Source of the DNA: Erysipelotrichaceae bacterium
GTDB taxonomy: Bacteria > Bacillota_I > Bacilli_A > Erysipelotrichales > Erysipelotrichaceae
DNA: 32,000 nucleotides
Direction of reading: 5' to 3'
NCBI GenBank assembly: GCA_963676105.1
Contig: OY781039.1
Location: 1,560,001 to 1,592,000, forward strand
Below are positions 1,021-24,260 of this stretch, piece by piece (the stretch's first letter is position 1; every line of letters starts with the position of its first letter). The notes under the pieces are model-generated. The model saw only the letters and a program-made list of their open reading frames with translations. It searched no databases and had not been told where the DNA came from. Both the position numbers and the translations under genes were made by a program.

Positions 1021-2511
<1,491 letters not shown>

Positions 2512-2521
2512 TTATTAGAAG

Positions 2522-2557
2522 AAAAGCAAACTATTTTATCAGTAGTTTGCTTTTTTT
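2522..2557 (+). terminator. Rho-independent terminator of dusB-lysS
   Basis: Perfect 12-bp stem aaaagcaaacta (2522-2533) / tagtttgctttt (2543-2554), 9-nt loop, T-run to 2557. Confidence 0.8.
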
Positions 2558-2870
2558 AGGACTCCACTTGTTGACATGAGTTGTATTAATCCAATAATGT
2601 CTTTATCAAACCACAATCTATCATGGACACCTGCAATAGACCATATGATTACGACATAACCATTTGGATCTCTACCGTCAATCATATAAGTATCATTAAG
2701 ATAAATAATTTTGTCGATTGCTTATTGTGCAATTGACACCACAATAAGATTTGTTTTGCCAAATACATTCTAAGATATCAGTGACGATAACTGTTATCTC
2801 GAACCATTTGTTGTCAATCGTTCAATACAATATCATGGGTATTTATATACTCTAAATCAGGTGAAGTGTA
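2539..2870 (-). pseudogene. Decayed remnant of an unidentified gene
   Basis: Minus-strand translation gives protein-like segments (IDNKWFEITVIVTDILECI / FGKTNLIVVSIAQ*AIDKIIYLNDTYMIDGRDPNGYVVIIWSIAGVHDRLWFDKDIIGLIQLMSTSGVLKKANY*). They are broken by an in-frame stop and at least one frameshift. No intact ORF of 60 aa or more lies in 2560-3225. Confidence 0.3.
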
Positions 2871-3176
2871 AATTTGCTACTGAAAATATTTAATATTGCG
2901 TTCAACTTACATGATAAGGGGGATATTTAAATCTTTTGATTATGTGAAAGTTCTAAGGGTCAAATCAGCAGGAAATTCATGTTACTATCGTTTGCATATT
3001 TGTAGTCTATTAATACAAAAAAATATTGATCTAAACGTAGTTTTTTTCACACGCTAATTGATGGGTTAATTCCAAAGCTAGGTTTTCTTGTATCTCAACA
3101 TCTCGGCTTTACTAATAAACTATTTTTCTATCCAAAAAATAATAATAACATTCAAAAACAAAAATAGAATCAAAAT

Positions 3177-3207
3177 AGTTGTAAAAAACAACTAATAATG
3201 ATATTTT
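3177..3207 (+). promoter_or_regulatory. Candidate promoter (TTGTAA-17-TGaTATTTT) with overlapping palindrome AGTTGT-N5-ACAACT (3177-3193), a possible MarR operator
   Basis: -35-like ttgtaa at 3179-3184. Extended -10 with TG at 3199-3200 plus tatttt at 3202-3207. Perfect 6+5+6 inverted repeat at 3177-3193. GGAG at 3216-3219 precedes the ATG at 3226. Confidence 0.3.
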
Positions 3208-3225
3208 TTAAAAAAGGAGATTGTC

Positions 3226-3651
3226 ATGCTGCTTTGTAACATTAGTATTATGAATCGATATGGAAAGAATAAATTAGACGAATTACTAATACCGTTTAAT
3301 TTAGATTGGTATCAATTTGCTGCAATATGGTTAATTGATGGTATTCCAGGGATTTCACAAAATGATATGATCCCATTTTTACAGACTGATAAAGGAAATG
3401 TCTCTAAAATTATTAAGAAATTAATTGAAGAAGAACTTGTTTATACACATAAGAGTGAGGATGATAATCGTAAAAAAGGGTGTTATCTAACACTTAAAGG
3501 CAAAGATTTAGTTCCAACACTGAAAAGGGTTATGAGTGATTGGGAAGATATTTTATACAAAAATATCAGTAAAGAAGAGTTAGAAATATTTGATAAAGTA
3601 AGCTCTCAAATATCAGTAAACTTAACACAAAATATGGAGAAATTTAAATGA
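3226..3651 (+). CDS. MarR-family winged-helix transcriptional regulator
   Basis: 141 aa. wHTH core (ISQNDMIPFLQTDKGNVSKIIKKLIEEELV..DDNRKKGCYLTLKG) typical of MarR. Good SD. Stop overlaps the next start (ATGA). Confidence 0.8.
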   Translation: MLLCNISIMNRYGKNKLDELLIPFNLDWYQFAAIWLIDGIPGISQNDMIPFLQTDKGNVSKIIKKLIEEELVYTHKSEDDNRKKGCYLTLKGKDLVPTLKRVMSDWEDILYKNISKEELEIFDKVSSQISVNLTQNMEKFK

Positions 3652-5420
3652 TCATTACAGGAAGAGCAATCTATAGATTAATTCTATCTGGTGCCAACAA
3701 TATTGTAGTTAATGAAACAACTCTCAATAGGATTAATGTCTTCCCTGTTCCCGATGGAGATACGGGAACCAATTTATCATTAACAATGAATCAAATATTA
3801 AGAGAGACTGTTGAACATGATTATGCTTTTATGCAATTAGAAAATATTGCGAAAGTGGCAGTAAACAATGCTTATGGTAATTCTGGCATGATTTTTGCTG
3901 AATATTTAAGTGGATTAGCTGAAAATCTTAATAATCAAAAAGAACTTAAGAGAAATGATCTTATCAAGGCGTTTTCACATGCATATGCTAAAGCGAAACA
4001 ATCTGTTTCACAGCCGAAAGAAGGCACAATTTTAAGTGTCATGCGTTCGTGGGCAGAGTTGTTGGAAAAATCAGTTCATCTAGAGATTGAACATCTATTT
4101 TCTGAGAATTTAGAGAAATTGTTTTTAGCTGTTGAAAACACAAAAGAACAGATGAGAATTTTAAAAGATAATAATGTAGTTGATGCAGGTGCATTAGCGT
4201 TTTTCTTCTTTGTTGAAGGAATGGTTAAATATCTTAAAAATGGTGATCAAACGGAATTAGAATTTAAGGCTTCTAAGATGGAATTTATTAGAGAGCCATT
4301 AAAGTCATTAGATATTGGTAAATACCGCTATTGTTGTCAATATCAAATAAAAGCAAGTACTGATTCTAAAGAATTAGAGACGAAACTAAAAGAATTTGGT
4401 GATTCGATTGTAACCCATCATGATAATCAAAATTTAAGTGTACATATGCATAGCAATCAACCTGCAGAACTTATGAAAGAACTTTTAAAGATCGGACCAG
4501 TTTTAAAACACAAAGTTGATGACATGCTTTTACAGTCAAATATGATCCATAAACCAAAATCTAAAATTGCTATTTTAACGGATTCTATAGCAGATTTACC
4601 TGCATCTTTCATTGATGAAAATCAAATAGCTGTTTTACCATTAAATATTATTATTGACTCAATTGTATACAAAGATAAAGTAACAATGACTTCTGACTAC
4701 TTCTATCAGTATTTAGATAATTTTAGAATGAGTCCAACATCGTCCCAACCTAACGTTGAAAGCATAGAGCGTTTTTTAAGCGAAATCATAAGGAATTATG
4801 ATGAAATCATAGGTATATTTGTTTCATCAAGGATGAGTGGTACTTATCATAATATACTTAATGTTCTAGAAAAAATTGAAACGACAAATAAAAAGATTAA
4901 AATCATTGATTCAAAGACAAATTCAGTTGCTCAAGGTTTAATTGTTTATGATCTAGTTCAAAAAAGGAATGACGGTTATAATTTTGACAAACTTGTTTTA
5001 TATGCTGACAAGTTAGTTGAAAATTCAGAAATATTTGTAAGCGTAAAAGATTTAAAGTACATGATAAAAGGCGGAAGAGTATCAAAATTACAAGGCAAGT
5101 TACTTTCCTTAGTAAAACTAAAGCCTGTAATTTCGATCGATAATAATGGTCTTGGCATTATACCTTTTAAGACACTAAGCCAAAAAAGCGCAGTAAATTC
5201 CATACTTAATAAAATAAAGAAGGATCTATCAAAGTCAAAGATATCTAAATATGCATTAGTGTACGCAGATAAAGAATTGGACTTGGAAATACTCAAAAAG
5301 AAAGTTAATAAAATACTGGAAAAAGAACCTGAATATATTGAATGTATTTCCCCAATTGTAGGATTAAATGCTGGTAAAGGTGCATTTGCGATTGCATACC
5401 TTAAGGATGAGATAGGTTAA
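3648..5420 (+). CDS. Fusion protein: FakA-like DhaL/Dak2 kinase domain + FakA-like central domain + complete DegV (FakB-like) fatty-acid-binding domain
   Basis: N-terminal VFPVPDGDTGTN (Dak2/DhaL). Middle YRYCCQY..GDSIVTHHDNQNLSVHMHSNQP (YloV/FakA central-domain-like). C-terminal half from about nt 4560 carries DegV motifs IAILTDSIADLP, PTSSQP, SSRMSGTY, IKGGRVS. Confidence 0.8.
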   Translation: MIITGRAIYRLILSGANNIVVNETTLNRINVFPVPDGDTGTNLSLTMNQILRETVEHDYAFMQLENIAKVAVNNAYGNSGMIFAEYLSGLAENLNNQKELKRNDLIKAFSHAYAKAKQSVSQPKEGTILSVMRSWAELLEKSVHLEIEHLFSENLEKLFLAVENTKEQMRILKDNNVVDAGALAFFFFVEGMVKYLKNGDQTELEFKASKMEFIREPLKSLDIGKYRYCCQYQIKASTDSKELETKLKEFGDSIVTHHDNQNLSVHMHSNQPAELMKELLKIGPVLKHKVDDMLLQSNMIHKPKSKIAILTDSIADLPASFIDENQIAVLPLNIIIDSIVYKDKVTMTSDYFYQYLDNFRMSPTSSQPNVESIERFLSEIIRNYDEIIGIFVSSRMSGTYHNILNVLEKIETTNKKIKIIDSKTNSVAQGLIVYDLVQKRNDGYNFDKLVLYADKLVENSEIFVSVKDLKYMIKGGRVSKLQGKLLSLVKLKPVISIDNNGLGIIPFKTLSQKSAVNSILNKIKKDLSKSKISKYALVYADKELDLEILKKKVNKILEKEPEYIECISPIVGLNAGKGAFAIAYLKDEIG

Positions 5421-6187
5421 TGATAGAACTTAATTTAATCATTATTATAGTGGTGTATTTCTTAATCTGGTTCTTCATAAATACTTTATTAAAGAATGCA
5501 GGGCTAATTGATATCGCATGGGGTTTAGGCTTTGTTTTGCTTGCAATCACCCAATATGTTAATAACATAAGCTCACTTGGATTGATATTACTTATGATGG
5601 TAGCCATTTGGGGCTTAAGACTAAGTTGGCATATTGGAAAGAGAAATATCAACAACCCAGAAGATCACCGATATCAAAAATTTAGAAATGATTGGGGCAA
5701 ACATTATATATTGCGTGCAATCTTTCAAATTTATATTTTACAAGCAATACTTATGTTAATTGTTTCGATGACATTTCTTGATGGCATAAAACAGTCCGAA
5801 CTAAAGTCATTGGTTGGATTAATTATTGGTGCTATTGTTTATTCAATTGGCTTGGGATTTGAAGTGATTTCTGATTACCAAATGGAGAAATTTAAAAAAG
5901 ATATAAAGAATAAAGGACAGCTTATGACAAGTGGTTTATGGTCACTTAGTCGACACCCAAATTATTTCGGTGAAGCAACATTATGGTTAGGAATAGCTAT
6001 CACATCAATATCTATAGGATCAAACTTAGTTGCATTAATAGGCGCGTTTACAATATTCTATCTCGTTAGATTCTTATCAGGAACACCATTAATGGAGAAG
6101 AGAATTAAAGAATATGAAGAATTTAAATCTTATGAAAAAGAGGTGCCGATTTTCTTCCCAAAATTGAAAGGAGCTCTAAAAAAATGA
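5420..6187 (+). CDS. DUF1295-family polytopic membrane protein (steroid-5-alpha-reductase / ICMT-like superfamily)
   Basis: 255 aa, multiple TM segments. Motifs WGLRLSWHIGKRN..EDHRY and SDYQ..F....GLWSLSRHPNYFGE are characteristic of DUF1295. Start overlaps the upstream stop by 1 nt (TAATG). Confidence 0.8.
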   Translation: MIELNLIIIIVVYFLIWFFINTLLKNAGLIDIAWGLGFVLLAITQYVNNISSLGLILLMMVAIWGLRLSWHIGKRNINNPEDHRYQKFRNDWGKHYILRAIFQIYILQAILMLIVSMTFLDGIKQSELKSLVGLIIGAIVYSIGLGFEVISDYQMEKFKKDIKNKGQLMTSGLWSLSRHPNYFGEATLWLGIAITSISIGSNLVALIGAFTIFYLVRFLSGTPLMEKRIKEYEEFKSYEKEVPIFFPKLKGALKK

Positions 6188-6582
6188 AATTATTTATTCA
6201 CTTTATAATTACTTTTTTTGTATTTTTAAGCATTGACCTAATCTGGCTTGGCTTTATTGCCAAGAATATTTATGCAAATGCAATTGGTCATTTAATGAGT
6301 TCAAATGTTAACTGGCCAGCAGCGATAATATTTTACGTTATCTTTGTAGTCGGTATTTTATATTTTGTCGTTGAGCCAGCATTAATACATCAAGATATCA
6401 CTAAATTATTAATTTCTGCTGCTCTGTTTGGGTTTATAACATATGCAACATATGATTTAACGAATCTTGCAACACTCAAAGATTGGCCTGTCACTATTAC
6501 AATTATCGACTTAACTTGGGGTACAAGTTTATCACTTCTAGTTTCGATCATTTCATATTTTTTAATCAAGTTAATTTCATAG
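6184..6582 (+). CDS. DUF2177-like small integral membrane protein
   Basis: 132 aa, about 4 TM segments. Pattern IDLIWLGF...Y, ...TYATYDLTN.A.L.DWP...DL.WG matches my recollection of DUF2177. ATGA overlap with the DUF1295 gene. Confidence 0.65.
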   Translation: MKLFIHFIITFFVFLSIDLIWLGFIAKNIYANAIGHLMSSNVNWPAAIIFYVIFVVGILYFVVEPALIHQDITKLLISAALFGFITYATYDLTNLATLKDWPVTITIIDLTWGTSLSLLVSIISYFLIKLIS

Positions 6583-6599
6583 TTTAAAGGAGATATTCT

Positions 6600-7544
6600 A
6601 TGTTTGTAAAACCAAAAATATTAGTAAGTGATTGCCTTGGATTTAAAGCATGTCGTTATGATGCCTCTCAAATCAATGCACCACTTATTCAAGCGTTAGA
6701 ACCCTTTGTTGAGTATATAAGAGTTTGTCCAGAAGTTGCGATAGGACTACCAACACCAAGAGAAAGTTTAAGACTGATAGAGGATATTGAATATCCAAAG
6801 TTAGTTATTTCAAAATCAGGTAAAGACTTGACAGAAAAGATGAAGAATTTCTCAAATAATTTTATAGGAAATATTTCTCAGGTGCATGGTTTTCTATTAA
6901 AAAGCAGATCGCCATCATGCGGTACAAAAGATGTAAAAATTTATCATACATATGGGGTATCAAGCGCGATTGGGAAGGGCAAAGGTCTGTTTGCGCAAGA
7001 GGTTTTTAATTACTATCCTACACATCCAATTGAAGAGGAGGGTCGATTAACTAATTTTGCGATAAGAGAAGAGTACTTTTATAAGATATTTACGTTGGCT
7101 GAGTATGATGAATCAGTCAGAACAGTTAATGATCTCGTCAAATTTCACACGAAGCATAAGTATGCAATGATGTCATATCAACCTTTGAGAATGACAGAAC
7201 TTGGACAAATTGTCTCAAAATCAAGCAAGCGAACACAAAGTGATGATATTCAAGAGTACAAAGAGAGTTTGTATCAATTACTATCAGAAACGACTAGTAT
7301 TGGACGAAATATAAATACACTTAGTCATCTTTATGGGTATTTCAAAGATGATTTAAATGAATTAGAAAAAGAACATTATTTTACAACACTTGAATTATAC
7401 AAAAACCTGCAAATTCCCTTTTCAGTACCGATATCGATTATTTATTCATGGGCATTACGCTTTAAAAACGTCTACTTATTAAACCAATCAATCTTAAATC
7501 CATTTCCAAAAGAACTCATGAATCTACATGATAGTGGGAACTAA
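6600..7544 (+). CDS. TudS (DUF523) - DUF1722 fusion, RudS/YbgA-like putative [4Fe-4S] thio-nucleobase / tRNA 4-thiouridine desulfidase
   Basis: 314 aa. N-terminal DUF523 pattern with three candidate cluster cysteines (SDC12LG, VC43PE, SPSC107G). C-terminal DUF1722 pattern (HTKHKYAMMSY...LNQSILNPFPKEL). AAGGAG SD at 6587-6592. Confidence 0.8.
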   Translation: MFVKPKILVSDCLGFKACRYDASQINAPLIQALEPFVEYIRVCPEVAIGLPTPRESLRLIEDIEYPKLVISKSGKDLTEKMKNFSNNFIGNISQVHGFLLKSRSPSCGTKDVKIYHTYGVSSAIGKGKGLFAQEVFNYYPTHPIEEEGRLTNFAIREEYFYKIFTLAEYDESVRTVNDLVKFHTKHKYAMMSYQPLRMTELGQIVSKSSKRTQSDDIQEYKESLYQLLSETTSIGRNINTLSHLYGYFKDDLNELEKEHYFTTLELYKNLQIPFSVPISIIYSWALRFKNVYLLNQSILNPFPKELMNLHDSGN

Positions 7545-7563
7545 AAAAATATGAAGGAGATCA

Positions 7564-8187
7564 ATGATGAATTTAAAAGAAAAATATATTGATGCTTTAA
7601 ACGATTTAAATCACGATAAGTGCATATTATTACTTGATGAATATTTAAGTAGTGATGATGCAAACTTTGATGAAGCATTTGATTTAGTATCACAAGCACT
7701 ATCTTTATCCGTAAACTGCTCAACAGATGAAATATGGACAGAACATGCTAAGACGCAAATTGTAAGATCTAGCATAGAATTATTATCTATTTATATCATT
7801 AAAAATACACCACTTAAAAATCAAGAGAAAATCGCTATCATTTGTCCTAATGGAGAATATCATGAATTAGGGGCGAGAATGGTTAGTGAAGCTATACGAA
7901 AAGAAGGATTTAATGCGCTCTTTTTAGGTAACAGTTTACCCAATAAAGATATTGTAGAGTTGGTTAAATCTTGTGATTTAAAAGCGATTGTTTTTAGTAT
8001 TTCAAACTTTTTTACAATGCACTCGATTAATCCTGTTATTGACGAAATAAACAAAATTAGACCAGAGTTAAAGATTATACTTGGTGGACAAGCCATTAAT
8101 CATAATCCTAGTCAAATTCACGGTCAAAATTGTGAATTGTGTACAACTTTCGATCAATTGAAAGAAGTGTTGGAGGCGATGAAATGA
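7564..8187 (+). CDS. Stand-alone cobalamin-binding protein (helical B12-binding_2-like cap + Rossmann B12-binding domain), CarH/LitR-sensor-like, no DNA-binding domain
   Basis: 207 aa, no TM or signal peptide. KIAIICPNGEYHELGARMVSEAIRKEGFNALFLG...AIVFSIS...KIILGG. The His-on motif is E-x-H-x-x-G (nt 7855-7872). SD spacing suggests the second ATG (7567) may be the true start. Stop overlaps the permease start. Confidence 0.75.
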   Translation: MMNLKEKYIDALNDLNHDKCILLLDEYLSSDDANFDEAFDLVSQALSLSVNCSTDEIWTEHAKTQIVRSSIELLSIYIIKNTPLKNQEKIAIICPNGEYHELGARMVSEAIRKEGFNALFLGNSLPNKDIVELVKSCDLKAIVFSISNFFTMHSINPVIDEINKIRPELKIILGGQAINHNPSQIHGQNCELCTTFDQLKEVLEAMK

Positions 8188-9326
8188 AATTAGCATTTAA
8201 TATTGCGAGGCGTTTCTTAAACTATAATAAAGGTCAAACTTTACTTATTGTATTAGGGATAGCGATTGGAATATCAGTTCAAATTTTTATAGGTCTACTT
8301 ATCTCTGGTTTACAAGATTCACTCATTGATAGCACAATTGGTAGTAGCGCTCACATTACAATAAGTTCACAAACAAGAGGTGAGAATTTTGATTTCGACA
8401 ATAATTATTTAAATGACTTAAAAGAGAATGAAAATTTTACGAATGTTGGTATTAGTGTCAGTGGCCCAGCATTTGGTGTATTTGACGAAAAGAGTCAATC
8501 CATACTTTTTAGAGGTTTAGATTCTGAAGTGCTTGATATAAACAATCTTGAAAGCAAAATCATTGAAGGAACATTAGATATTAATAAAGGTATCGTCATT
8601 GGTAAAGGTTTAGCTGAACAACTTGAAATCGGTATTAATGATTATTTAACAATTCAACCAATCAATAATACAAGTACTGATTTTTTAGTTACCGGGATTG
8701 CTGATTTTAAAGTAGCGGTACTGAATGACAGTTGGGTTATTTCAAAACCTGATATTGTGCAAGAAACATTGTTGATAGATAATCAAATATCAGCGATTGA
8801 GATTCAAGTAGATGAAGTTTTTAGTGCTGATGTTTATGCAGCAGATTTAACTGTGCCATCAGGCTTAAGTGTTATTGATTGGAAAGCACAAAACGAAGAA
8901 CTATTATCTGGTTTAAATGGTCAAAGTGTATCAACTTATATGATTCAAGTCTTTGTATTAGTTTCGGTAGTTTTAGGAATCGCATCAACTCTCGCGATTA
9001 CTGTTTTACAAAAATCTAAGCAAATTGGGATCTTAAAAGCGATGGGAATAAAGAATTCTCAAGCATCGCTTATCTTTATGTTTCAAGGGATTATCTTAGG
9101 AATTCTTGGGGGCTTACTGGGAATGGGATTAGGCTATGGCTTACTTGAGATGTTTTCTACATTTGCGAAAAATTCAGACGGTAGCCCAATTATTCCAATT
9201 ACCTTTGACCTACAGTTTATATTATTATCGGGATCAATTGCAGTGATATCATCGTTTATCGCATCACTTATTCCAGCTAGAAAATCACTTAAACTATCTG
9301 TTATCGAGGTAATACGAAATGGCTAA
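8184..9326 (+). CDS. ABC transporter permease, FtsX/MacB/LolCE type (TM1, large extracytoplasmic domain, 3 C-terminal TMs)
   Basis: The ORF track starts at 8139. ATG 8184 (MKLAFNIARRFL..) is preferred because GGAGG lies at 8172-8176 and it forms an ATGA overlap with the upstream stop. Topology and N-terminus are typical of the FtsX family. Confidence 0.85.
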   Translation: MKLAFNIARRFLNYNKGQTLLIVLGIAIGISVQIFIGLLISGLQDSLIDSTIGSSAHITISSQTRGENFDFDNNYLNDLKENENFTNVGISVSGPAFGVFDEKSQSILFRGLDSEVLDINNLESKIIEGTLDINKGIVIGKGLAEQLEIGINDYLTIQPINNTSTDFLVTGIADFKVAVLNDSWVISKPDIVQETLLIDNQISAIEIQVDEVFSADVYAADLTVPSGLSVIDWKAQNEELLSGLNGQSVSTYMIQVFVLVSVVLGIASTLAITVLQKSKQIGILKAMGIKNSQASLIFMFQGIILGILGGLLGMGLGYGLLEMFSTFAKNSDGSPIIPITFDLQFILLSGSIAVISSFIASLIPARKSLKLSVIEVIRNG

Positions 9327-9996
9327 AATATTAGAACTAAATAATATCAAAAAATCCTATGGTGAAACTGAAGTTCTACATGGACTTAGCTTTGATTTAG
9401 AAGAAGGTTCATTTACATCAATCATTGGACAGTCAGGTTCAGGTAAAAGTACGCTTCTCAATATCTTGGGAACACTTGATAATGCGAGTCAGGGCAGTCT
9501 TAGAATTAATGGTGTATCAACGGAAACACTAAAAGGCAAAAAACTAGCTGAACTTAGAAATACTACACTTGGCTTTATCTTTCAATTTCATCACTTGCTT
9601 CCAGAATTTTCAGCTCTAGAAAATATTTTGATGCCTGTTAAAATCCAAAAAGGAAAAGTCACAAAAGAGGATTTACAATGGGCAGAAGAGCTTATAGAAG
9701 TCGTTGGGTTAAGTAAAGTTAAAAATAATAACGCCTTTAAAATGTCTGGTGGTCAACAACAACGTACTGCTATTGCACGTGCACTTATGAACAAACCTAA
9801 ACTCATCTTAGCAGATGAACCAACCGGAAACTTAGATAGTGATACAGCTGAAAATATTTACCAACTTATGCGTTCAATTAATGCAAAGTACAACACAAGT
9901 TTCCTAATCATTACACATGATCAAGATATAGCTCAAAAAGCGGATCGAATTATCGAAATAAAAGATGGACATATTGTGCTAGATGTTTCTAAATGA
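9319..9996 (+). CDS. ABC transporter ATP-binding protein (LolD/MacB-type)
   Basis: Walker A GQSGSGKST, signature MSGGQQQR, Walker B LILADEPTGNLD. 8-nt overlap with the permease gene. Confidence 0.9.
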   Translation: MAKILELNNIKKSYGETEVLHGLSFDLEEGSFTSIIGQSGSGKSTLLNILGTLDNASQGSLRINGVSTETLKGKKLAELRNTTLGFIFQFHHLLPEFSALENILMPVKIQKGKVTKEDLQWAEELIEVVGLSKVKNNNAFKMSGGQQQRTAIARALMNKPKLILADEPTGNLDSDTAENIYQLMRSINAKYNTSFLIITHDQDIAQKADRIIEIKDGHIVLDVSK

Positions 9997-10040
9997 TTAA
10001 AGTGCAAAACATGTATCTGTTTAGATTTTATCTTTAAATT

Positions 10041-10076
10041 AAAAAAACTGGAGTTCATTTGAATTCCAGTTTTTAT
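10041..10076. terminator. Bidirectional rho-independent terminator between the convergent ABC operon and nrdJ
   Basis: A-run, 10-bp stem actggagttc (10047-10056) / gaattccagt (10061-10070), T-run. The stem has one G.U pair on the + transcript, which is a mismatch on the - transcript. Confidence 0.7.
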
Positions 10077-10083
10077 ATATAAT

Positions 10084-12594
10084 TTATAATCCGCACTTGA
10101 GTTGAGCATTACAGTTGGTACATGTATTACATCCACCAATTTCCTCAACTGTACCTTCTAAGCAGATAGGACAGATATCACCAACTTCAACACCGATGTT
10201 ACGGTCTTGTCTGTCAGCTCTTAAGTCTGTTTTCTTTTCTTCAGGTTGTTGTTCTTTGACATTGACTCCAAAGTCATGGACTAAGTCCATTTGAGCCCAG
10301 TTGTTTTCATCATCATTGGTGAGTGTGAGAACTTGAGCATCACGTGATCCATCAACATAAACTGTTCCGCCTTTAGCTTTACCTGCGTAGAGTCTCTCAT
10401 AGATTTTTTGAACTTGTCTAACGGTAAATCCACGAGGGGCATTAACTGTTTTAGAAATTGAAGAATCAATCCATCTTTGAATTGCACATTGTGTATCAGC
10501 GTGTTCTTCAGGTGTAAGATCCATAGCGGCGACAAAGTACTCTGGGAGTGTTTGTCTTGTATATTCAGGATTGAGTTCTAAGAAGTCATCCACGATTTGT
10601 GCATTAACTTCAATAAACTTACCTAAACGTCCAGAACGATAATAACTAAATGAGAAGTAAGGTTCGAGTCCTGTAGATACACCGACCATAGTCCCAGTAG
10701 AACCGGTAGGGGCAATCGTTAATAAGTGAGAGTTACGGATACCATGTTTGAGAACACCTTGACGAATTTCTTCACTCATGGTTTTCATGTAGCCGGTATT
10801 GATAAATTCTTCTCTAGATTCTAAGAATGGGAATGAACCCTTCTCAGCAGCTAGATCAATGGATGTTTTATAAGCAGATTCTGCGATTGTTTTAAATACT
10901 TCATCTATCGTCTCGATTGATTCAGGTGAACCATAACGTTTCTTAGACCAGATGAGTAAGTCATGAAGACCCATAACCCCTAATCCAACACGTCTTTCGC
11001 TTAAAGCTTGAGTTTTATTTGGCTCTAGGAAGTAAGGTGTATCATCAATAACGTTATCTTGCATACGTACAGTTAAGGCAACTGTATGAGCAAGTGCATC
11101 GAATTGGATTTCGCCAGTTTTGCGATCAACGAAGTTTGCGAGATTAACAGCCGCTAAGTTACAAACTGAATAAGGCGCTAATGGTTGTTCACCACAAGGG
11201 TTAGTTGCGACAACTTTTTGTCCATAAGCTTTTGCGTTTGTCATATCGTTAGCATTATCAATGAAGAAGATACCTGGTTCTGCAGAATAGGTAGCACAGA
11301 AGTTAATTAAGTCCCATAGGTCTCTTGCTTTAATGGTTCTGTAAACTTTAACAGGATAGCCCATTTCTTCCCATTCACGAACATCACCAATTTCATGCCA
11401 TCTTAGATCATAAACTTCTTTTTCTTCTTTAGAGAAGTTTTGTAAATCTGGGAATCGTAATTGGAAGTCGCCATCATTTTCAACAGCGTTCATAAATTCT
11501 TTAGTGATTGTGACAGATATATTAGCTCCTGTTAAGAACTCAGGATTTAAAACTTCTAATGTTCCTCCATCAGCGAGTTTTGATCGAGCGTGGTTGATAA
11601 TATGTTGTTCAGCAGTTTTGCTTTCAGCTAATTCTTCATACATTTCTCTTTCAATACGTGAGAATTCTTTATATTTAATATGCTTTTCAGCTTCTTTACG
11701 AATTTGTTCATCATTTGAATTTTCAATAAGCCATTTTAAGACTTTAGCATTTTGCATCTTTGAAATGATGAATTCAATGATATCAGGATGCCAGTCAGCC
11801 ATCATGATCATTTGCGCACCACGACGTGAGCCACCTTGTTCAACTAAGTGTGTTAGGTTAGCTAAGTCATTTAACCAAGAAACAGCACCTGATGATTTAC
11901 CACCAACGCCTTTTGCAGGAGCACCTTTTGGTCTTAGTGTTGAACCATTAGTCCCAACACCGCCACCACGTGACATGATTTCCATAACTTCTTTACGGTG
12001 TTCTGAAATACCACCACGTGAATCATGGACAAAAGGCATAACAAAGCAGTTGAAGTATGTAACTTGAGTGCCTGATCCAGCACCAAATAAAACACGTCCT
12101 GCAGGGATGGTGTTCATCTTCTCTAATTGTTCAGAAAAGAGTTGTCCATATTTTTCTTGATCAGCTTCTGATTTTTCAGTAGAGGCTAATGCATGACCTA
12201 CGCGGCGTGCAATTTGTTCATAATATATTTCAATCGGTTTATCTACTTGATGAAGTGGTCGTTTAACAAGGCCGGTTTCAGCCTCGGTTTCATCTTCGAG
12301 GGATCCACGGAATTCTTCTTCAAGTAAGATAGAGACAATATCCCCATCAATAGCTTGAACAGATCCGATACCACGAGAAGGGAATTTAGGGTCTTCTTTT
12401 ACAACTGTAACAACAATATCACCAACACCAAGTGTTTTATGACTTCTATCTTTTTGCGCATAACGATCGAGCATGACTAAACGAGACACGCCTTGGTGTG
12501 TTAGTTTATCAGTCTCTAAAATTTGATAAATATGCGGAAAATGCGTACTGATGTCCGCATTCAGCTTTTGTACAGTTACATCTGAATACTTCAT
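10084..12594 (-). CDS. nrdJ: Adenosylcobalamin-dependent ribonucleotide reductase, class II
   Basis: 836 aa. RNR barrel motifs (NPCGEQPL, TIAPTGS). No ATP-cone. C-terminal Cys-rich tail CPICLEGTVEEIGGCNTCTNCNAQLKCGL, typical of class II enzymes. Confidence 0.9.
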   Translation of the reverse strand: MKYSDVTVQKLNADISTHFPHIYQILETDKLTHQGVSRLVMLDRYAQKDRSHKTLGVGDIVVTVVKEDPKFPSRGIGSVQAIDGDIVSILLEEEFRGSLEDETEAETGLVKRPLHQVDKPIEIYYEQIARRVGHALASTEKSEADQEKYGQLFSEQLEKMNTIPAGRVLFGAGSGTQVTYFNCFVMPFVHDSRGGISEHRKEVMEIMSRGGGVGTNGSTLRPKGAPAKGVGGKSSGAVSWLNDLANLTHLVEQGGSRRGAQMIMMADWHPDIIEFIISKMQNAKVLKWLIENSNDEQIRKEAEKHIKYKEFSRIEREMYEELAESKTAEQHIINHARSKLADGGTLEVLNPEFLTGANISVTITKEFMNAVENDGDFQLRFPDLQNFSKEEKEVYDLRWHEIGDVREWEEMGYPVKVYRTIKARDLWDLINFCATYSAEPGIFFIDNANDMTNAKAYGQKVVATNPCGEQPLAPYSVCNLAAVNLANFVDRKTGEIQFDALAHTVALTVRMQDNVIDDTPYFLEPNKTQALSERRVGLGVMGLHDLLIWSKKRYGSPESIETIDEVFKTIAESAYKTSIDLAAEKGSFPFLESREEFINTGYMKTMSEEIRQGVLKHGIRNSHLLTIAPTGSTGTMVGVSTGLEPYFSFSYYRSGRLGKFIEVNAQIVDDFLELNPEYTRQTLPEYFVAAMDLTPEEHADTQCAIQRWIDSSISKTVNAPRGFTVRQVQKIYERLYAGKAKGGTVYVDGSRDAQVLTLTNDDENNWAQMDLVHDFGVNVKEQQPEEKKTDLRADRQDRNIGVEVGDICPICLEGTVEEIGGCNTCTNCNAQLKCGL

Positions 12595-12624
12595 ATTGAA
12601 AACCCCTTTTGATTGATACGTTTT

Positions 12625-12633
12625 ATTTTATCA
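12625..12633 (-). promoter_or_regulatory. Candidate extended -10 promoter (TGaTAAAAT) for nrdJ
   Basis: The minus strand reads caTGaTAAAAT about 30 nt upstream of the nrdJ ATG. The AAGGGG SD lies between them. Confidence 0.4.
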
Positions 12634-12671
12634 TGATTGCCTATGTGTCATTCATGAAAGTGACTTACATT

Positions 12672-13133
12672 TTATAGTTCTTTTGAGAAAACAAAATCTG
12701 ATAATCTATTAATGTATTTAATAAAGTCTATATTAATACTCTCTGATAATGAATAGGCAATTAACACTCTTTCGACGCGTCTTACTTTTGCGCGAATAAG
12801 ATGCAAATGAGCTTTTAATTCATTGTCGAATGGAAAGATGAATTGATGTGTTAGATTTTGTTTTTTCTTAATTTCTTGATCAAAATAATCAATGTGTTCA
12901 CTTAAATCTATATCATCTAAGTAGCCTGAAAGAACACTACTTATTTGATAGAGATCGTTGACCACCATGACACAATCTTTTTTGTCTAAGTGAAATAAAG
13001 ATTGATGATAGATGAGTTCACTTGATAATTCGTCAATTTCACCTAAAAGGTTAATTAATGGATCACTTTTAGACAAGCGTTTATTTTTTACATCTGTTTG
13101 GCCAGTATCGCCCTTTTTAGTTGAGATTGTCAT
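12672..13133 (-). CDS. pduO: PduO-type ATP:cob(I)alamin adenosyltransferase (short form)
   Basis: 153 aa. N-terminal TKKGDTGQT matches the PduO-type T-K-x-G-D-x-G-x-T ATP motif. Helical-bundle-like remainder. Last gene of a cobalamin-riboswitch-controlled unit. Confidence 0.75.
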   Translation of the reverse strand: MTISTKKGDTGQTDVKNKRLSKSDPLINLLGEIDELSSELIYHQSLFHLDKKDCVMVVNDLYQISSVLSGYLDDIDLSEHIDYFDQEIKKKQNLTHQFIFPFDNELKAHLHLIRAKVRRVERVLIAYSLSESINIDFIKYINRLSDFVFSKEL

Positions 13134-13638
13134 TGAATTGATATTTCCTCATGAGTTGTTTAATCACTCGATAAATCGGCTTATATAACAATATTATAAG
13201 GATATAATTGGACGCTGCGTGAACTAAATCAAACAAAAGTCCTCTAAACCAATAAATAAGTCCCATATTGAAACCATACAAAAGCGCATGTTGAGCCGCA
13301 AAGAGGAGACCAAAAGCAAATCCAAAGAGGGCACCTGAAATAGCCCAAAACTGGTCTTTGTCTTTAATGAGTGGTTTCAAGGCTTGAACGATAATCATCC
13401 ACAATGTCCAAATCCATAGATACGCTAATACCCAATCACCAAAGCCCCAAACTAAACCCTCTAATAATGAGAATATAAAAACGACAATGAGGGATTCTTT
13501 CCAATTTATAAATTGAGCTATGATCAAGAACAAGAGTGTAACAAGTTCAACATTTGGAAGAGAAGCCATTGCGATTTGCGAAACAAAGGCAGTTGTGGCG
13601 ATTAATGCAAGCAATATCCACCGTTTAAGTGAGCGCAT
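13117..13638 (-). CDS. ECF-transporter S-component-like membrane protein, putative cobalamin-specific (CbrT-like)
   Basis: 173 aa, 5-6 hydrophobic helices rich in aromatics and Gly. Position under a cobalamin riboswitch, between a DUF4430-like gene and an adenosyltransferase gene. The family assignment rests mainly on context. Confidence 0.5.
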   Translation of the reverse strand: MRSLKRWILLALIATTAFVSQIAMASLPNVELVTLLFLIIAQFINWKESLIVVFIFSLLEGLVWGFGDWVLAYLWIWTLWMIIVQALKPLIKDKDQFWAISGALFGFAFGLLFAAQHALLYGFNMGLIYWFRGLLFDLVHAASNYILIILLYKPIYRVIKQLMRKYQFNDNLN

Positions 13639-13640
13639 GA

Positions 13641-14084
13641 TTAGTAAGTAGATGTGAAGTTTAATTCAAAATTATCTTGATCATAGATGCTTTGAAGATC
13701 AATACCGTTACAAAATCCTGCTTCTAAACAATCAACGTTATTCTCTGAATTGATTAACCACCAAGGACCAGTTGTCATATCCTCAGTTATATCTTCATTG
13801 ATGGAAAGAATCATTCTTCCCCAGGTATCCGTTTTTTCACCACTATAAGTGATTTCGATTTCATCATAGAACTCATCAACTTCATCTAATAAATCACCAA
13901 GTGTTTCTGAATCGGTATGAACTGTATTTTCAAATACAACTGTTTCACCTTCTTCAGTATCTACCACAATAGAAAGTTGAATATCTTTTTCACCTTCCAT
14001 TCTTGGGAAAATCATTGGTTTTAGAAGTCCGTAGGCTCCAAATGCGACCAATAATACTGTAATAATGCTTAAAAATTTCTTCAT
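13641..14084 (-). CDS. Membrane-anchored or secreted DUF4430-like protein (transcobalamin beta-domain-like), putative extracellular cobalamin-capture protein
   Basis: 147 aa. N-terminal hydrophobic anchor MKKFLSIITVLLVAFGAYGLL. C-terminal pattern TGPWWLINSENNV...GIDLQSIYDQDNFELNF resembles DUF4430 (G.W...vNg....l.dgD...f.y). First gene after the riboswitch. Confidence 0.55.
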   Translation of the reverse strand: MKKFLSIITVLLVAFGAYGLLKPMIFPRMEGEKDIQLSIVVDTEEGETVVFENTVHTDSETLGDLLDEVDEFYDEIEITYSGEKTDTWGRMILSINEDITEDMTTGPWWLINSENNVDCLEAGFCNGIDLQSIYDQDNFELNFTSTY

Positions 14085-14099
14085 GACTAGCCTCCTTAA

Positions 14100-14126
14100 A
14101 TAAAAAACACATCCTTAAGATGTGTA
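14100..14126 (-). terminator. Intrinsic terminator forming the riboswitch expression platform
   Basis: The minus transcript reads acacatc-ttaag-gatgtgt followed by UUUUUUA, immediately before the AAGGAGG SD of the DUF4430-like gene. An upstream cttaagat (about 14150-14158) can pair with atcttaag inside the terminator as an alternative, antiterminator-like helix. Confidence 0.65.
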
Positions 14127-14179
14127 AAAAAGACAGTTTGTGCCTTTTTATCTTAAGTCCCAGAAGATAATGGAGTTTG

Positions 14180-14335
14180 CTTTTGTTGGCAGGTCTACTG
14201 GCTGATCGTTCATCCTCTAAGCACCTTCCCGAAACGTTTCTCTCAGTGGTATCTTGCTTATCGTCACGACCTACAGTTGCTGGGACAGCTTTGTTTACTA
14301 CAAATTCCCTATTGAGCTCATTGAGCACCAAAGTA
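14180..14335 (-). promoter_or_regulatory. Cobalamin (AdoCbl-type) riboswitch aptamer
   Basis: The minus strand carries the conserved elements. GGTGC...AGGGAA at + coords 14305-14310. GCTGTCCCAGCAACTGTA at 14271-14290. CCACTG...GGGAAGG at 14221-14249. B12 box CAGCCAGTAGACCTGCCAAC at 14185-14204. Confidence 0.85.
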
Positions 14336-14344
14336 AGCATGTTC

Positions 14345-14350
14345 ATTATA
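14345..14350 (-). promoter_or_regulatory. Consensus -10 box (TATAAT) upstream of the riboswitch
   Basis: Perfect TATAAT on the minus strand about 10 nt before the start of the aptamer. No convincing -35 at 16-18 nt spacing. Confidence 0.35.
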
Positions 14351-15134: not shown

Positions 15135-15500
15135 TTATTGAATGAATTGAATTTCATCTCCAACTTTAATGGTTGGAACTTTATAAGGACTTAATAGTGC
15201 AGCACCTGCCATGAGTTCAGTACCTTCTTCTAAACCGAAGTAGAGAGAGATATGACCTAACTCATTAAGGGTAGTGCCTGCAACATCACCGATGTCTTCA
15301 ACGATGAATTCTTCATCACCAAATTTGATCTTGCTTCCTTTTGTTAAGAAGTTAAGTGGAATTTGTGATTCAGTTTCGTGGATAACACAAACTTCTCTAA
15401 GCCCTGGAGGAGCTGTGTCATTGAATAGAATTAGAATTGGATAGTCTTCGAAAAAGTAATCTGGTCCTAATTCTGTAATCTTTGATTTAATAATAGCCAT
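15135..15500 (-). CDS. srlB: PTS glucitol/sorbitol-family EIIA component
   Basis: 121 aa. SrlB-like sequence including LNELGHISLYF (candidate phospho-His). Confidence 0.85.
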   Translation of the reverse strand: MAIIKSKITELGPDYFFEDYPILILFNDTAPPGLREVCVIHETESQIPLNFLTKGSKIKFGDEEFIVEDIGDVAGTTLNELGHISLYFGLEEGTELMAGAALLSPYKVPTIKVGDEIQFIQ

Positions 15501-15502
15501 AA

Positions 15503-16747: not shown

Positions 16748-16791
16748 TTGTTATACCTTTCCATGATTAAACATCATTTGTAAACGCCTAC

Positions 16792-16820
16792 ATCATAGAA
16801 CGAGCAATTTATGTTGTCAA
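16792..16820 (-). promoter_or_regulatory. Candidate promoter of the oxidoreductase-srlB operon (TTGACA-17-TATGAT)
   Basis: Minus-strand ttgaca (+ coords 16815-16820) and tatgat (16792-16797) with a 17-nt spacer. Confidence 0.5.
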
Positions 16821-16837
16821 TTTTGTTATTGTAAGTG

Positions 16838-16912
16838 TAACAAATGTGAATTTTTGGTAATATTGTGAATAGATGAAAAGAATTATCAAGCAGTTTTTGG
16901 AACATTTGTGAA
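16838..16912. promoter_or_regulatory. Three direct copies of a 12-13-bp box (t)AAYAwwTGTGAA between the divergent PTS promoters
   Basis: taacaaatgtgaa at 16838-16850, taatattgtgaa at 16858-16869, aacatttgtgaa at 16901-16912. The last two are each preceded by tttttgg. A weaker copy, acacatttgg, lies at 16929-16938. Confidence 0.4.
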
Positions 16913-16939
16913 AAAACCATGACTTTTGACACATTTGGA

Positions 16940-16968
16940 TTGACTTTGATATAGCGCTTTCATAAAAT
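16940..16968 (+). promoter_or_regulatory. Candidate promoter of gutM-srlA-srlE (TTGACT-17-TAAAAT)
   Basis: ttgact at 16940-16945 and taaaat at 16963-16968, about 60 nt upstream of the GTG at 17030. Confidence 0.5.
16949..16962. promoter_or_regulatory. cre-like (CcpA-type) site in the gutM promoter spacer
   Basis: The minus strand reads TGAAAGCGCTATAT against my recollection of the cre consensus TGWAANCGNTNWCA. The two 3' positions mismatch. Confidence 0.35.
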
Positions 16969-16985
16969 CGAGTTAGCTAAGGCAA

Positions 16986-16999
16986 GGAAAACGCTTTCA
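16986..16999 (+). promoter_or_regulatory. cre-like site in the gutM 5' leader
   Basis: GGAAAACGCTTTCA against TGWAANCGNTNWCA. Only the first base mismatches. Confidence 0.4.
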
Positions 17000-17029
17000 C
17001 TTGCTTTGCTCATTACAGAAAGGTAAGGT

Positions 17030-17440: not shown

Positions 17441-17461
17441 AATTCTCAAAAGGAGGAATGT

Positions 17462-17974: not shown

Positions 17975-17978
17975 TCTT

Positions 17979-19022: not shown

Positions 19023-19044
19023 TAGATAGAACTAATTAATGATC

Positions 19045-19077
19045 AAAGAAGTTCAGAATTCTGGACTTCTTTTTTTT
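19045..19077 (+). terminator. Rho-independent terminator after srlE
   Basis: 12-bp stem aaagaagttcag (19045-19056) / ctggacttcttt (19061-19072) with one G.U pair, 4-nt loop, T7 run. Confidence 0.8.
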
Positions 19078-19092
19078 GTTATCATTTAAGTA

Positions 19093-19779: not shown

Positions 19780-19798
19780 AACCATCACAAAATCTATT

Positions 19799-19832: not shown

Positions 19833-19834
19833 AT

Positions 19835-19863: not shown

Positions 19864-19887
19864 ATTAGTAGCATATGTTACGTTTAA

Positions 19888-19901: not shown

Positions 19902-19912
19902 AGGAGGCAATT

Positions 19913-24258: not shown

Positions 24259-24260
24259 TT

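Follow-up and report, generated by a model that had tools for sequence, protein, structure and literature searches.

A conserved, translationally coupled module joins a stand-alone B12-binding protein to a type VII ABC transporter and suggests a light- or B12-controlled membrane transporter

The B12 photoreceptors described so far act on DNA binding or on enzymatic domains fused to the sensor. CarH/LitR-type domains (TtCarH, 5c8d; CtMerR, 8jbs) combine a four-helix cap with a Rossmann fold, hold a His-on lower ligand in a G-x-x-H motif, and carry a cap E-H pair with Arg at +7 as well as a G-x-x-x-P motif. The light response of the CtMerR domain has been shown experimentally, and the published light-response signature includes G-x-x-W, EH, GxxH, and GxxxP (PMC11796333). 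Photocobilins (Saccharothrix syringae SasPcob, 8j2w/8j2x; PMC10979010) are light-responsive B12 domains with a non-DNA output; they have a biliverdin-binding globin-like domain fused at the C-terminus and, in some cases, a GGDEF output domain. AerR/PpaA antirepressors (7te2; PMC9144470) are stand-alone proteins of approximately 210 aa that act via protein-protein contact. Heliorhodopsin, a 7-TM retinal protein that modulates OmrDE, a type IV heterodimeric exporter, is a precedent for direct action of a light sensor on an ABC transporter (PMC11109279). Genes for DegV, DUF1295, and DUF2177 are reported to form the characteristic heliorhodopsin neighborhood in Firmicutes and Chloroflexi (bioRxiv 10.1101/2021.02.16.431466).

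The locus described here joins a B12-binding protein to genes for a type VII ABC transporter, the class of MacB, LolCDE, FtsEX, BceAB, and HrtBA. To our knowledge, no transporter of this class has a cytoplasmic cofactor-binding regulator, and we know of no Lol or MacB system with a cytoplasmic cofactor-binding partner. Cytoplasmic regulators can gate ABC ATPases, as in EIIA-Glc binding to MalK and MetNI trans-inhibition. A literature search found no link of a B12-binding protein with FtsX, MacB, or Lol, and the pairing of a stand-alone B12 protein with a transporter appears to be undescribed. The original prediction had proposed either a free B12 sensor or an accessory subunit of a MacB-type transporter and had taken both arrangements to be new; this holds for the transporter pairing but not for a free B12 regulator, since AerR is one (7te2, PMC9144470).

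The window, which is the whole stretch of 32,000 nucleotides analyzed from an Erysipelotrichaceae bacterium, contains the following three-gene module.

7567..8187, + strand: stand-alone B12-binding protein, four-helix cap and Rossmann domain, 206 aa (PF02310, AF2, Foldseek, family profile)
7735..7746, + strand: cap motif W57-T-E59-H60 (W58, E60, and H61 in 207-aa numbering), read from the DNA
7855..7872, + strand: putative lower axial ligand motif E97-Y-H99-E-L-G102 (GAA TAT CAT GAA TTA GGG), Glu variant of D-x-H-x-x-G
8172..8187, + strand: translational coupling element, GGAGG (8172-8176) and ATGA stop/start overlap (8184-8187), read from the DNA
8184..9326, + strand: FtsX/MacB_PCD permease, LolF/LolC/LolE-like, 380 aa, type VII ABC membrane subunit (PF02687 and PF12704)
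9319..9996, + strand: LolD-like ABC ATPase, 225 aa, overlapping the permease gene by 8 nt (PF00005, E 1.2e-33)

The open reading frame of the B12 protein, including an alternative ATG, was read from the DNA as 7564-8187 (+), 207 aa, which was the length first proposed. The frame is correct, but translation probably begins at the second ATG (7567), for a product of 206 aa, because an AAGGAG box (7554-7559) is better spaced for it and because the equivalent M-N/E-L is the start in all 13 close homologues and in public gene calls. Pfam returned B12-binding PF02310 alone (E 5e-14, residues 89-186; 52.6 bits against a gathering cutoff of 32.1), with no HTH family, no N-terminal MerR-type DNA-binding domain, and no PF02607 match in the cap region. 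The AlphaFold2 model (pLDDT 91.4, no low-confidence segment) has four N-terminal helices at residues 3-80 followed by the Rossmann half. A stand-alone protein of helical N-terminus and Rossmann half was thus what had been predicted. The EYHELG motif at 7855-7872 was also as first read.

The cap Trp lies 2 residues before the Glu (S-T-D-E-I-W-T-E-H), compared to 10 in CarH-type photoreceptors. There is no Gly-x-x-Trp 10 residues upstream of the cap E-H, so that the canonical Trp of G-x-x-W or W-x9-E-H is absent, in agreement with the spacing reported originally. Both W-x-E-H-x-K-T-Q-I-x-R and C-P-x-G-E-Y-H-E-L-G-A-R were invariant in 13 homologues with identity down to 39%, and G96-E-Y-H99, G121-N-S-L-P125, and G173-G174 were likewise invariant in that alignment. 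Across 51 family members, with identity down to approximately 21%, E59, H60, E97, H99, and G174 were unchanged. W.EH was found in 106 of 109 loci and E.H[ED].G in all 109, the D variant occurring in none. This invariance across distant homologues indicates that the motifs are more than chance.

A Foldseek search with the AF2 model returned CarH (TtCarH), LitR, and photocobilin structures exclusively in its top 50. The best match was photocobilin 8j2w (TM-score normalized by query length, TMq, 0.78-0.80; rmsd 2.9), and the match to TtCarH had an E-value of 1.6e-10. These relatives are B12 photoreceptors and not the methyltransferase corrinoid proteins that had been named beforehand as the contrary outcome. 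When a family profile was searched against the PDB, the CtMerR cobalamin-binding domain was best (8jbs, E 2.7e-21), photocobilins scored 6e-19, and methyl carriers were lower (MttC, 1.8e-14; 4jgi, 8e-14). At the sequence level, methyl-carrier corrinoid proteins were close behind the photoreceptors; TtCarH itself fell below MttC with the profile. The NCBIfam CarH equivalog matched at 43 bits against a cutoff of 400, with the C-terminal part alone covered. The methyl-carrier models were also below cutoff (TIGR02370 pyl_corrinoid, 38.5 against 215.3; MtbC, 27.7 against 350; MtaC, 25.5 against 420). The closest multi-domain relatives were signaling proteins, namely photoglobin-B12, HTH-B12, and a GGDEF/EAL-B12 protein. 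A tblastn search of plasmids found just an out-group multi-domain protein in Ilyobacter, beside a GGDEF gene.

Three of the 4 elements of the light-response signature (EH, GxxH, and GxxxP) are present and conserved in the B12-protein family, whereas G-x-x-W is not. In the alignment, E59-H60 coincide with the E-H pair of CtMerR and of photocobilins (E141/H142 of TtCarH), and the local I-W-E-E-H is shared with CtMerR. The cap E-H position is P-H in MttC (7xcn), the sole methyl carrier seen aligned; judged from the aligned sequences, the residue that discriminates photoreceptor from methyl carrier is the Glu of this pair. The Glu of the ligand motif had been proposed as a mark of CarH/LitR domains but is not diagnostic, as validated light-responsive domains include E-x-H (photocobilin 8j2w) as well as D-x-H forms (CtMerR 8jbs, photocobilin 8j2y).

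Compared with the described systems, the B12 protein shares with CarH/LitR-type domains the fold, the G-x-x-H ligand, the cap E-H with Arg at +7, and G-x-x-x-P. It differs from them in having no MerR DNA-binding domain, in a cap that falls outside PF02607, and in a sole Trp 2 residues before the Glu where TtCarH has the G-x-x-W Trp W131; its output partner is apparently an ABC transporter and not DNA. These two cap differences, the missing canonical Trp and the missing PF02607 match, indicate that the upper-ligand pocket differs from that of CarH. The photocobilin SasPcob shares the highest TM-score and the E-x-H ligand variant (G-E-W-H), as well as an output other than DNA, but here the B12 module is bare and its output would be in trans.

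The permease matched PF02687, the FtsX C-terminal domain (E 2.9e-15), and PF12704, the MacB-type extracytoplasmic domain (E 8e-14), and its best solved relative was LolF (9w37, E 4e-17). The ATPase consists of a nucleotide-binding domain in minimal form and lacks any regulatory extension. By these matches, the 2 proteins belong to the type VII ABC transporters (MacB/LolCDE/FtsEX superfamily). They share with LolDF, LolCDE, and MacB (LolF 9w37; LolCDE 7arh) a permease of four TM helices with MacB-type extracytoplasmic and FtsX domains and a LolD-like ATPase. The single permease gene suggests a homodimer, as in LolF. However, both genes missed the equivalog cutoffs (TIGR02212 lolCE, 106 bits against 362; TIGR02211 LolD, 265 bits against 308). 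Erysipelotrichaceae and Clostridia, the known hosts of the module, are monoderm Firmicutes with no outer membrane for lipoprotein sorting, which does not fit a LolCDE lipoprotein-release system proper, with its diderm host and LolA/LolB.

The TGA stop of the B12 gene (8185-8187) overlaps the permease ATG (8184-8186) in a 4-nt ATGA overlap preceded by GGAGG, as the original prediction had read it. We found an FtsX permease directly downstream of the B12 gene in 85 of 87 loci and, counted as non-redundant clusters, in 75 of 78, with B12-protein identity down to 24% and GC of 26-69%; the adjacency to the ABC genes, whose loss had been foreseen as a counterargument, is therefore conserved. A LolD-like ATPase was also present in 52 of the 53 loci with enough room. 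In all 86 loci measured, the B12 stop and the permease start were -17 to +15 nt apart, and in 58 of them the genes overlapped. Loci chosen via the permease alone had the B12 gene upstream in 4 of 4 cases. W-x-E-H was missing in 2 of the 3 clusters without a downstream permease. One exception, L063, matched partially and showed no FtsX in its 1.4 kb of downstream sequence. The B12 gene, the permease, and the LolD-like ATPase are thus a conserved, translationally coupled three-gene module. It is widespread: Clostridia, Erysipelotrichia, and high-GC lineages together account for more than 1000 protein clusters. A taxonomic look-up of cluster members gave a single name, Saccharofermentanales, and the high-GC loci lie at 66-69% GC. 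The conserved coupling favors the accessory-subunit branch of the original proposal over the free sensor; operon linkage alone is no proof of a physical complex.

Beyond the 3 genes, no upstream gene was conserved (134 Pfam families in 113 ORFs, taking the two nearest upstream ORFs per locus) and no downstream gene was conserved (104 Pfam families in 63 ORFs). This census gave scattered families such as PMSR/SelR, ICMT/PEMT, and PAS-GGDEF, and distant loci mostly had unrelated housekeeping genes as neighbors. A promoter and terminator scan of 2400-10200 gave counts equal to the shuffled expectation in this AT-rich DNA. Upstream of the module, the window contains the following.

3226..7544, + strand: upstream operon genes, tightly packed, same operon as the module (profile matches)
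3226-3651, + strand: MarR regulator
3648-5420, + strand: Dak2-DegV fusion
5420-6187, + strand: DUF1295
6184-6582, + strand: DUF2177
6600-7544, + strand: TudS/DUF1722
2548..2873, - strand: DNA photolyase remnant, C-terminal, frameshifted (tblastn, two HSPs in different frames)

In most Erysipelotrichales loci, with the exception of L003, L008, and L105, DUF1295-DUF2177 (and Dak2-DegV) accompany the module, as they do in L018, L026, L040, and L058. An intact photolyase adjoins the module in L005, L009, L013, L039, and L105. These light-related neighbors occur mainly in Erysipelotrichales. The DegV/DUF1295/DUF2177 trio around the sensor is shared with heliorhodopsin in Firmicutes (bioRxiv 10.1101/2021.02.16.431466), as is the concept of a light sensor acting on an ABC transporter (PMC11109279). 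The sensor here is a soluble corrinoid protein instead of a retinal protein, the transporter is Lol/MacB-like type VII instead of type IV, and translational coupling and near-universal occurrence make the association much tighter.

The explanation we favor, tentatively, is that a corrinoid-based CarH-type sensor works with a homodimeric Lol/MacB-type (type VII) ABC transporter as its dedicated third component. From its fold and motifs, we infer that the cytoplasmic protein binds a cobalamin, most likely AdoCbl, with His99 as the lower axial ligand and Trp57, Glu59, and His60 of the four-helix cap covering the upper face. The cofactor state would set the conformation or oligomeric state of the protein, which in turn would bind to or release the minimal LolD-like ATPase dimer. 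This physical contact would switch ATP hydrolysis and hence permease mechanotransmission on whatever substrate is transported or extracted. The most likely signal would be light, by Co-C bond photolysis as in CarH, and a light-gated ABC transporter may have a role in photoprotection related to the membrane or to lipids. The DegV/DUF1295/DUF2177 setting in Erysipelotrichales, the photolyase genes nearby, and a neighboring PduO adenosyltransferase, which shows that AdoCbl is made, speak for light. Against it, many hosts of the module, which include cultured Clostridia, are strict anaerobes of sediments and digesters (Clostridium, Pseudobacteroides, Acetivibrio), for which light would be a less evident cue. 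A bolder version, possible but held with more reserve, is that this would be the first B12-based photoreceptor with a membrane-transporter output, in which an AdoCbl protein clamps or releases the type VII ATPase dimer and the module, in Erysipelotrichales, takes the place of heliorhodopsin beside DegV/DUF1295/DUF2177 lipid-remodeling genes.

Alternatively, the B12 protein could be a corrinoid-status sensor or a corrinoid-handling partner, with the transporter working in corrinoid acquisition, release, or detoxification. The protein would then report B12 availability or form, for example OH-Cbl bis-His via His60 as in AerR, or deliver corrinoid to the transporter or accept it from there. The B12-binding motifs are all intact, many hosts are anaerobes of dark habitats, and in the window and close relatives the module faces a riboswitch-controlled operon for B12 uptake, PduO, and NrdJ, as follows.

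10084..14347, - strand: convergent operon under a cobalamin riboswitch (Rfam, Pfam, NCBIfam)
14171-14347, - strand: cobalamin riboswitch (Rfam RF00174, 100 bits)
12672-13133, - strand: PduO-type adenosyltransferase (Pfam/NCBIfam)
10084-12594, - strand: class II RNR NrdJ (Pfam/NCBIfam)

This operon, which also encodes a 147-aa protein and a 173-aa membrane protein, shows that the cell obtains B12 and produces AdoCbl. The MacB-type pump HrtBA extrudes heme, a tetrapyrrole, and MacAB exports protoporphyrin, which also speaks for a corrinoid substrate; against it, we know of no type VII permease that moves hydrophilic solutes across the membrane. The NrdJ/PduO adjacency is kept in closer relatives only (e.g., L001, L003, L105) and is absent at or below approximately 53% identity (L005, L008-L016) and in all distant loci. 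Since it is lost in more distant Erysipelotrichales loci, it was rejected as a functional link. A B12-uptake reading was rejected because neither the window nor any of 22 diverse loci showed a cobalamin riboswitch ahead of the module. The weak similarity to AerR and the invariant cap Glu, whose position is Pro in the Pro-His of the aligned methyl carrier MttC, also argue against a role in corrinoid status or handling, which we consider rather unlikely.

Less likely still is a free AerR-type photoreceptor or antirepressor with an unlinked or variable DNA-binding partner, the ABC genes then being no more than passengers co-transcribed in a light regulon. AerR is a known case of a stand-alone B12 domain that regulates a transcription factor (PMC9144470), and it shares with our protein its size, four-helix cap, and B12-binding domain. 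A MarR gene is present in the window, and AraC regulator genes in clusters L005, L009, and L013. However, no regulator family is conserved beside the module, and mere co-regulation does not explain the B12-FtsX-ABC order (75 of 78 clusters) or the coupling (86 of 86 loci). The similarity to AerR (7te2) is weak, with an E-value of 0.056 for the single sequence and 3.2e-6 with the profile. AerR also has no ABC gene linkage; its partner is CrtJ/PpsR, in photosynthesis gene clusters, and Pfam censuses found no PpsR/CrtJ or photosynthesis genes in the window or loci.

We regard it as improbable that the domain is degenerate or repurposed, a structural subunit binding another ligand (heme, as the AppA SCHIC domain does) or none. 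The cap falls short of PF02607, the canonical Trp is missing, and one relative had a weak AppA_SCHIC match; yet the family keeps the axial His, ligand-loop Gly, G-x-x-x-P, and G-G without exception, and PF02310 scores above its gathering threshold. A methyl-carrier corrinoid protein of the MtaC/MtbC/MttC type, in line with the JGI annotation "methanogenic corrinoid protein MtbC1", the partial NCBIfam matches to pyl_corrinoid, MtgC, and MtbC, and 4jgi as the best single-sequence PDB match, is very improbable given scores far under the NCBIfam cutoffs, a structural top 50 made up entirely of photoreceptors, Glu where the L-P-H cap motif of methyl carriers has Pro, and no methyltransferase or RamA-type activase genes in the window or among the 25 most frequent flanking families listed (113 upstream and 63 downstream ORFs).

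Taken together, the pairing with a Lol/MacB-type transporter suggests a light- or B12-controlled membrane transporter, in which, on our preferred reading, the B12 protein would be a corrinoid-based regulatory subunit, probably responsive to light, of the type VII ABC machine. If this is true, the module would be a new output class for cobalamin-based sensing and a new mode of ABC transporter regulation, and it could offer optogenetics a compact green-light-controlled membrane machine. Mining by the published light-response signature would miss this family because that signature requires G-x-x-W. A regulatory role would also give a function to a large Clostridia/Erysipelotrichia family whose present labels, "MtbC1" or "cobalamin B12-binding domain-containing protein", are wrong, and the shared DegV/DUF1295/DUF2177 neighborhood ties the module to the question of heliorhodopsin function.

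The B12-binding open reading frame was present at 7564-8187 (+), with E-Y-H-E-L-G at 7855-7872 and W-T-E-H at 7735-7746, as the original prediction had it. Reading of the DNA also confirmed the GGAGG at 8172-8176 and the ATGA at 8184-8187, where the following gene begins at an ATG that overlaps the TGA stop. The frame does encode 207 aa from 7564; however, translation more likely begins at the second ATG (7567) and yields 206 aa, because the AAGGAG is better spaced from this codon, which also agrees with the N-termini of all homologues. Residue numbers below refer to the 206-aa version. PF02310 (B12-binding) was the sole Pfam match (E 5e-14, residues 89-186). Thirteen close homologues (39-100% identity) were each single-domain proteins of 204-211 aa, with W57-x-E59-H60-x-K-T-Q-I-x-R and C-P-x-G-E97-Y-H99-E-L-G-A-R invariant among them.

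The B12-protein gene forms a three-gene module with the permease and ATPase genes that follow it, and this module closes a tightly packed operon at its 3' end. The other genes of the operon are:

3226-3651 (+), MarR regulator, first gene of the operon
3648-5420 (+), Dak2-DegV fusion of 590 aa (Dak2, FakA-like kinase; DegV, FakB-like fatty-acid binding)
5420-6187, DUF1295 protein
6184-6582, DUF2177 protein
6600-7544 (+), TudS (2-thiouracil desulfurase)/DUF1722 fusion, directly 5' of the B12 gene
8184-9326 (+), permease with FtsX and MacB_PCD domains (Pfam)
9319-9996 (+), ABC ATPase (Pfam), overlapping the permease gene by 8 nt

The closest solved relative of the permease was LolF (E 4e-17), followed by LolC/LolE, MacB, and YtrF. 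Both subunits were nearest to LolCE and LolD in NCBIfam, yet under the equivalog cutoffs. The ATPase, a minimal NBD, has 225 aa and no regulatory extension, and the transporter is presumably a homodimer, since there is a single permease gene. Canonical lipoprotein sorting to the outer membrane was ruled out as its function because the identified hosts are monoderm. The lipid-related neighbors in Erysipelotrichales suggest extraction or remodeling of membrane lipids or lipoproteins.

An HMM search returned 5780 relatives of the B12 protein, 38 of them below E 1e-30. The best 150 were mostly stand-alone proteins of 200-230 aa, and most carried W-x-E-H-x-x-[ST]-x-I-V-R and P-x-x-E-x-H-E-[LI]-G-A-R. 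GTDB genomes, metagenomes, and exact-protein look-ups supplied 109 loci (designated L), onto which we mapped the window proteins by tblastn. Among the first 100, 87 had at least 600 nt of downstream sequence, and an FtsX permease gene lay directly 3' of the B12 gene in 85 of these; where the downstream sequence reached 2.3 kb or more, the ATPase was also present (52 of 53 loci). Clustering at 90% identity gave 86 non-redundant clusters, 78 with enough downstream sequence, and FtsX was directly downstream in 75. The adjacency to ABC genes first noticed in the window is thus conserved, across loci with B12-protein identity down to 24% and GC of 26-69%. The exceptions were a CarH-like protein with canonical W-x9-E-H in a Krumholzibacteriia MAG (L017), a multi-domain Ilyobacter protein adjoining a GGDEF gene (L101), and a partial match at 294-686 of a 2115-nt locus (L063), the only family-like match with downstream room (1.4 kb) and no FtsX gene. 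L017 and L101 lack W-x-E-H; therefore, motif and transporter adjacency go together.

The distance from B12 stop to permease start was -17 to +15 nt in all 86 loci, and 58 of the 86 overlapped at stop/start, chiefly through the same ATGA. When loci were picked solely by permease homologues (53-67% identity), the B12 gene was upstream in 4 of 4. No other gene was conserved upstream (134 Pfam families among 113 ORFs, the two nearest in distant loci) or downstream (104 families among 63 ORFs). These results show that the B12 protein and a type VII ABC transporter, itself devoid of a regulatory domain, form a near-obligate, translationally coupled pairing. The local regulator also varied, being MarR in the window and AraC upstream in other Erysipelotrichaceae loci. 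A second B12-binding protein, with a canonical PF02607 cap, was seen near the module in L061 (101-388, -) and L089 (1984-2391, -), and in 4 of the 113 upstream ORFs.

The family was carried by Erysipelotrichaceae and Erysipelotrichales MAGs and by cultured Clostridia, namely Clostridium bowmanii, C. punense, C. sulfidigenes, Pseudobacteroides cellulosolvens, Acetivibrio alkalicellulosi, and Herbivorax, where annotation goes no further than "cobalamin B12-binding domain-containing protein" or "MtbC1." Two metagenomic loci have T-box leaders, consistent with Firmicutes, and loci of 66-69% GC suggest a wider spread.

The AlphaFold2 model from the close-homologue alignment (pLDDT 91.4, pTM 0.86) predicted four helices at residues 3-80 and a Rossmann half after them. 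The best 50 Foldseek matches in the PDB were without exception cobalamin photoreceptors, including the TtCarH cobalamin-binding domain (E 1.6e-10), photocobilin 8j2w (TM 0.78-0.80, rmsd 2.9 Å), and LitR 3whp, rather than the methyltransferase corrinoid proteins that the original prediction had named as the competing outcome. A single-sequence PDB search placed a Desulfitobacterium corrinoid protein first (4jgi, 1.7e-7), with photocobilins and CarH next. A profile of 51 family members ranked CtMerR 8jbs (2.7e-21) and photocobilins (6e-19) ahead of MttC (1.8e-14), 4jgi (8e-14), TtCarH (1.5e-9), and AerR (3e-6). CarH was also the best partial NCBIfam match, and multi-domain relatives in an exhaustive HMM search were signaling proteins (photoglobin-B12, HTH_3-B12, RR-GAF-PAS-GGDEF-EAL-B12). 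These data show that the fold is CarH-like, with the His-on ligand loop intact and the cap E-H pair present.

The published light-response signature is GxxW, EH, GxxH, and GxxxP (PMC11796333). The B12 protein carries EH (E59-H60), GxxH (G96..H99), and GxxxP (G121..P125). GxxW is absent, the sole cap tryptophan being two residues ahead of the Glu, and signature-based mining would therefore have overlooked this family. The local sequence I-W-E-E-H is common to the family and to CtMerR, a domain whose green-light response was shown experimentally in the SignatureFinder paper (PMC11796333). The Glu variant of the ligand motif, singled out in the original prediction, does occur in a validated photoreceptor (E-x-H in 8j2w) but is not diagnostic, as 8jbs and 8j2y have D-x-H. 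The Glu of the cap E-H pair is a better discriminator, since in the alignment the methyl carrier MttC has P-H at that position.

The linkage of the module to DUF1295-DUF2177 (and Dak2-DegV) held in most Erysipelotrichales loci (these genes being absent from L003, L008, and L105) and in the more distant L018, L026, L040, and L058. DegV, DUF2177, and DUF1295 are characteristic heliorhodopsin neighbors in Firmicutes and Chloroflexi (bioRxiv 10.1101/2021.02.16.431466); here the trio is the same, but a B12-type sensor fills the place of heliorhodopsin. The Dak2-DegV fusion itself stayed beside the module across Erysipelotrichales and several distant loci, and the TudS/DUF1722 gene was confined to the nearest relatives (61% identity or more). 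Photolyase genes lay beside the module in L005/L006, L009, L013, L039, and L105. The window has a photolyase remnant within the 715-nt lysS-marR gap, and relatives have an intact photolyase adjoining the module. The close relative L001 has amine-oxidase, SnoaL, and SDR genes upstream. Features of these surroundings are:

Window 2548-2873 (-), frameshifted C-terminal remnant of DNA photolyase (...DPNGYVVIIWSIAGVHDRLWFDKDIIGLIQLMSTSGVLKKANY*)
L005 2088-2903, L009 5821-6609, and L013 2789-3568, AraC-family regulators
L009 12234-14492, L013 12252-14495, and L064/L091 about 8530-11460 (-), large PAS-PAS-GGDEF-HD(-GYP) proteins just 3' of the module

The last of these adjoin photolyase in L009 and L013, and their PAS_9 domains could be LOV-type candidates. 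Farther along the window, 15135-25457 is housekeeping (sorbitol PTS with GutM, lipoate-protein ligase, a SorC-type regulator, and an E3-E1alpha-E1beta-E2 2-oxoacid dehydrogenase cluster), and 25958-31375 encodes SSB, DUF2232, GdpP, L9, and DnaB.

Convergent with the module, a cobalamin riboswitch (14171-14347, -, 100 bits) governs a second operon, whose products are two unannotated proteins, PduO adenosyltransferase, and a class II RNR (NrdJ). The gene content of this operon shows B12 import and AdoCbl synthesis in the host cell. Of the unannotated genes (13117-14347, -, region), which precede those for PduO and NrdJ, the first encodes a secreted-looking 147-aa protein with no Pfam match; the product of the second has 173 aa and several TM segments, and matches only an ECF S-component model, below threshold (E 0.02). 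Together they may constitute a B12 uptake pair not yet described. In more distant relatives the module no longer adjoins the PduO/RNR operon, and no cobalamin riboswitch was found upstream of the module in the window or 22 other loci.

We tentatively propose, with confidence a little short of even, that the B12 protein is a cobalamin-binding, corrinoid-state-dependent regulator of the ABC transporter, most likely light-switched. It would bind cobalamin, most likely AdoCbl, and its cofactor-dependent state would control the ATPase dimer through binding or release. Cytoplasmic gating of ABC ATPases has precedent in EIIA-Glc acting on MalK and in MetNI trans-inhibition. By analogy with CarH, the switch would most likely be light, although this specific version is more doubtful than regulation as such. 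The one precedent for an ABC transporter modulated by light is unrelated: heliorhodopsin acts on OmrDE (PMC11109279).

Sensing or handling of corrinoid status without light is rather unlikely; many hosts come from dark, anaerobic habitats and the window has its NrdJ/PduO neighbor, but that adjacency is unconserved, the module lacks riboswitches, and similarity to AerR is weak. A free AerR-like antirepressor with the ABC genes as mere cargo is improbable, as it leaves unexplained the universal gene order and coupling and the absence of a conserved regulator. We give little credence to a repurposed domain that has lost B12 binding. A methyl carrier is hardly credible, with no methyltransferases in the window or among the most frequent families of the flanking ORFs in other loci, every NCBIfam methyl-carrier score far under cutoff, and a predicted structure of photoreceptor type.

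The original prediction held neither arrangement to be described. Stand-alone B12 regulators (AerR) and the superfamily of the fold are already known; the transporter pairing does appear new, as we found no B12-binding protein tied to FtsX, MacB, or Lol transporters in full-text literature searches, and the surveys of B12 photoreceptor architectures consulted do not include it. The module matters because it is widespread and directly testable.
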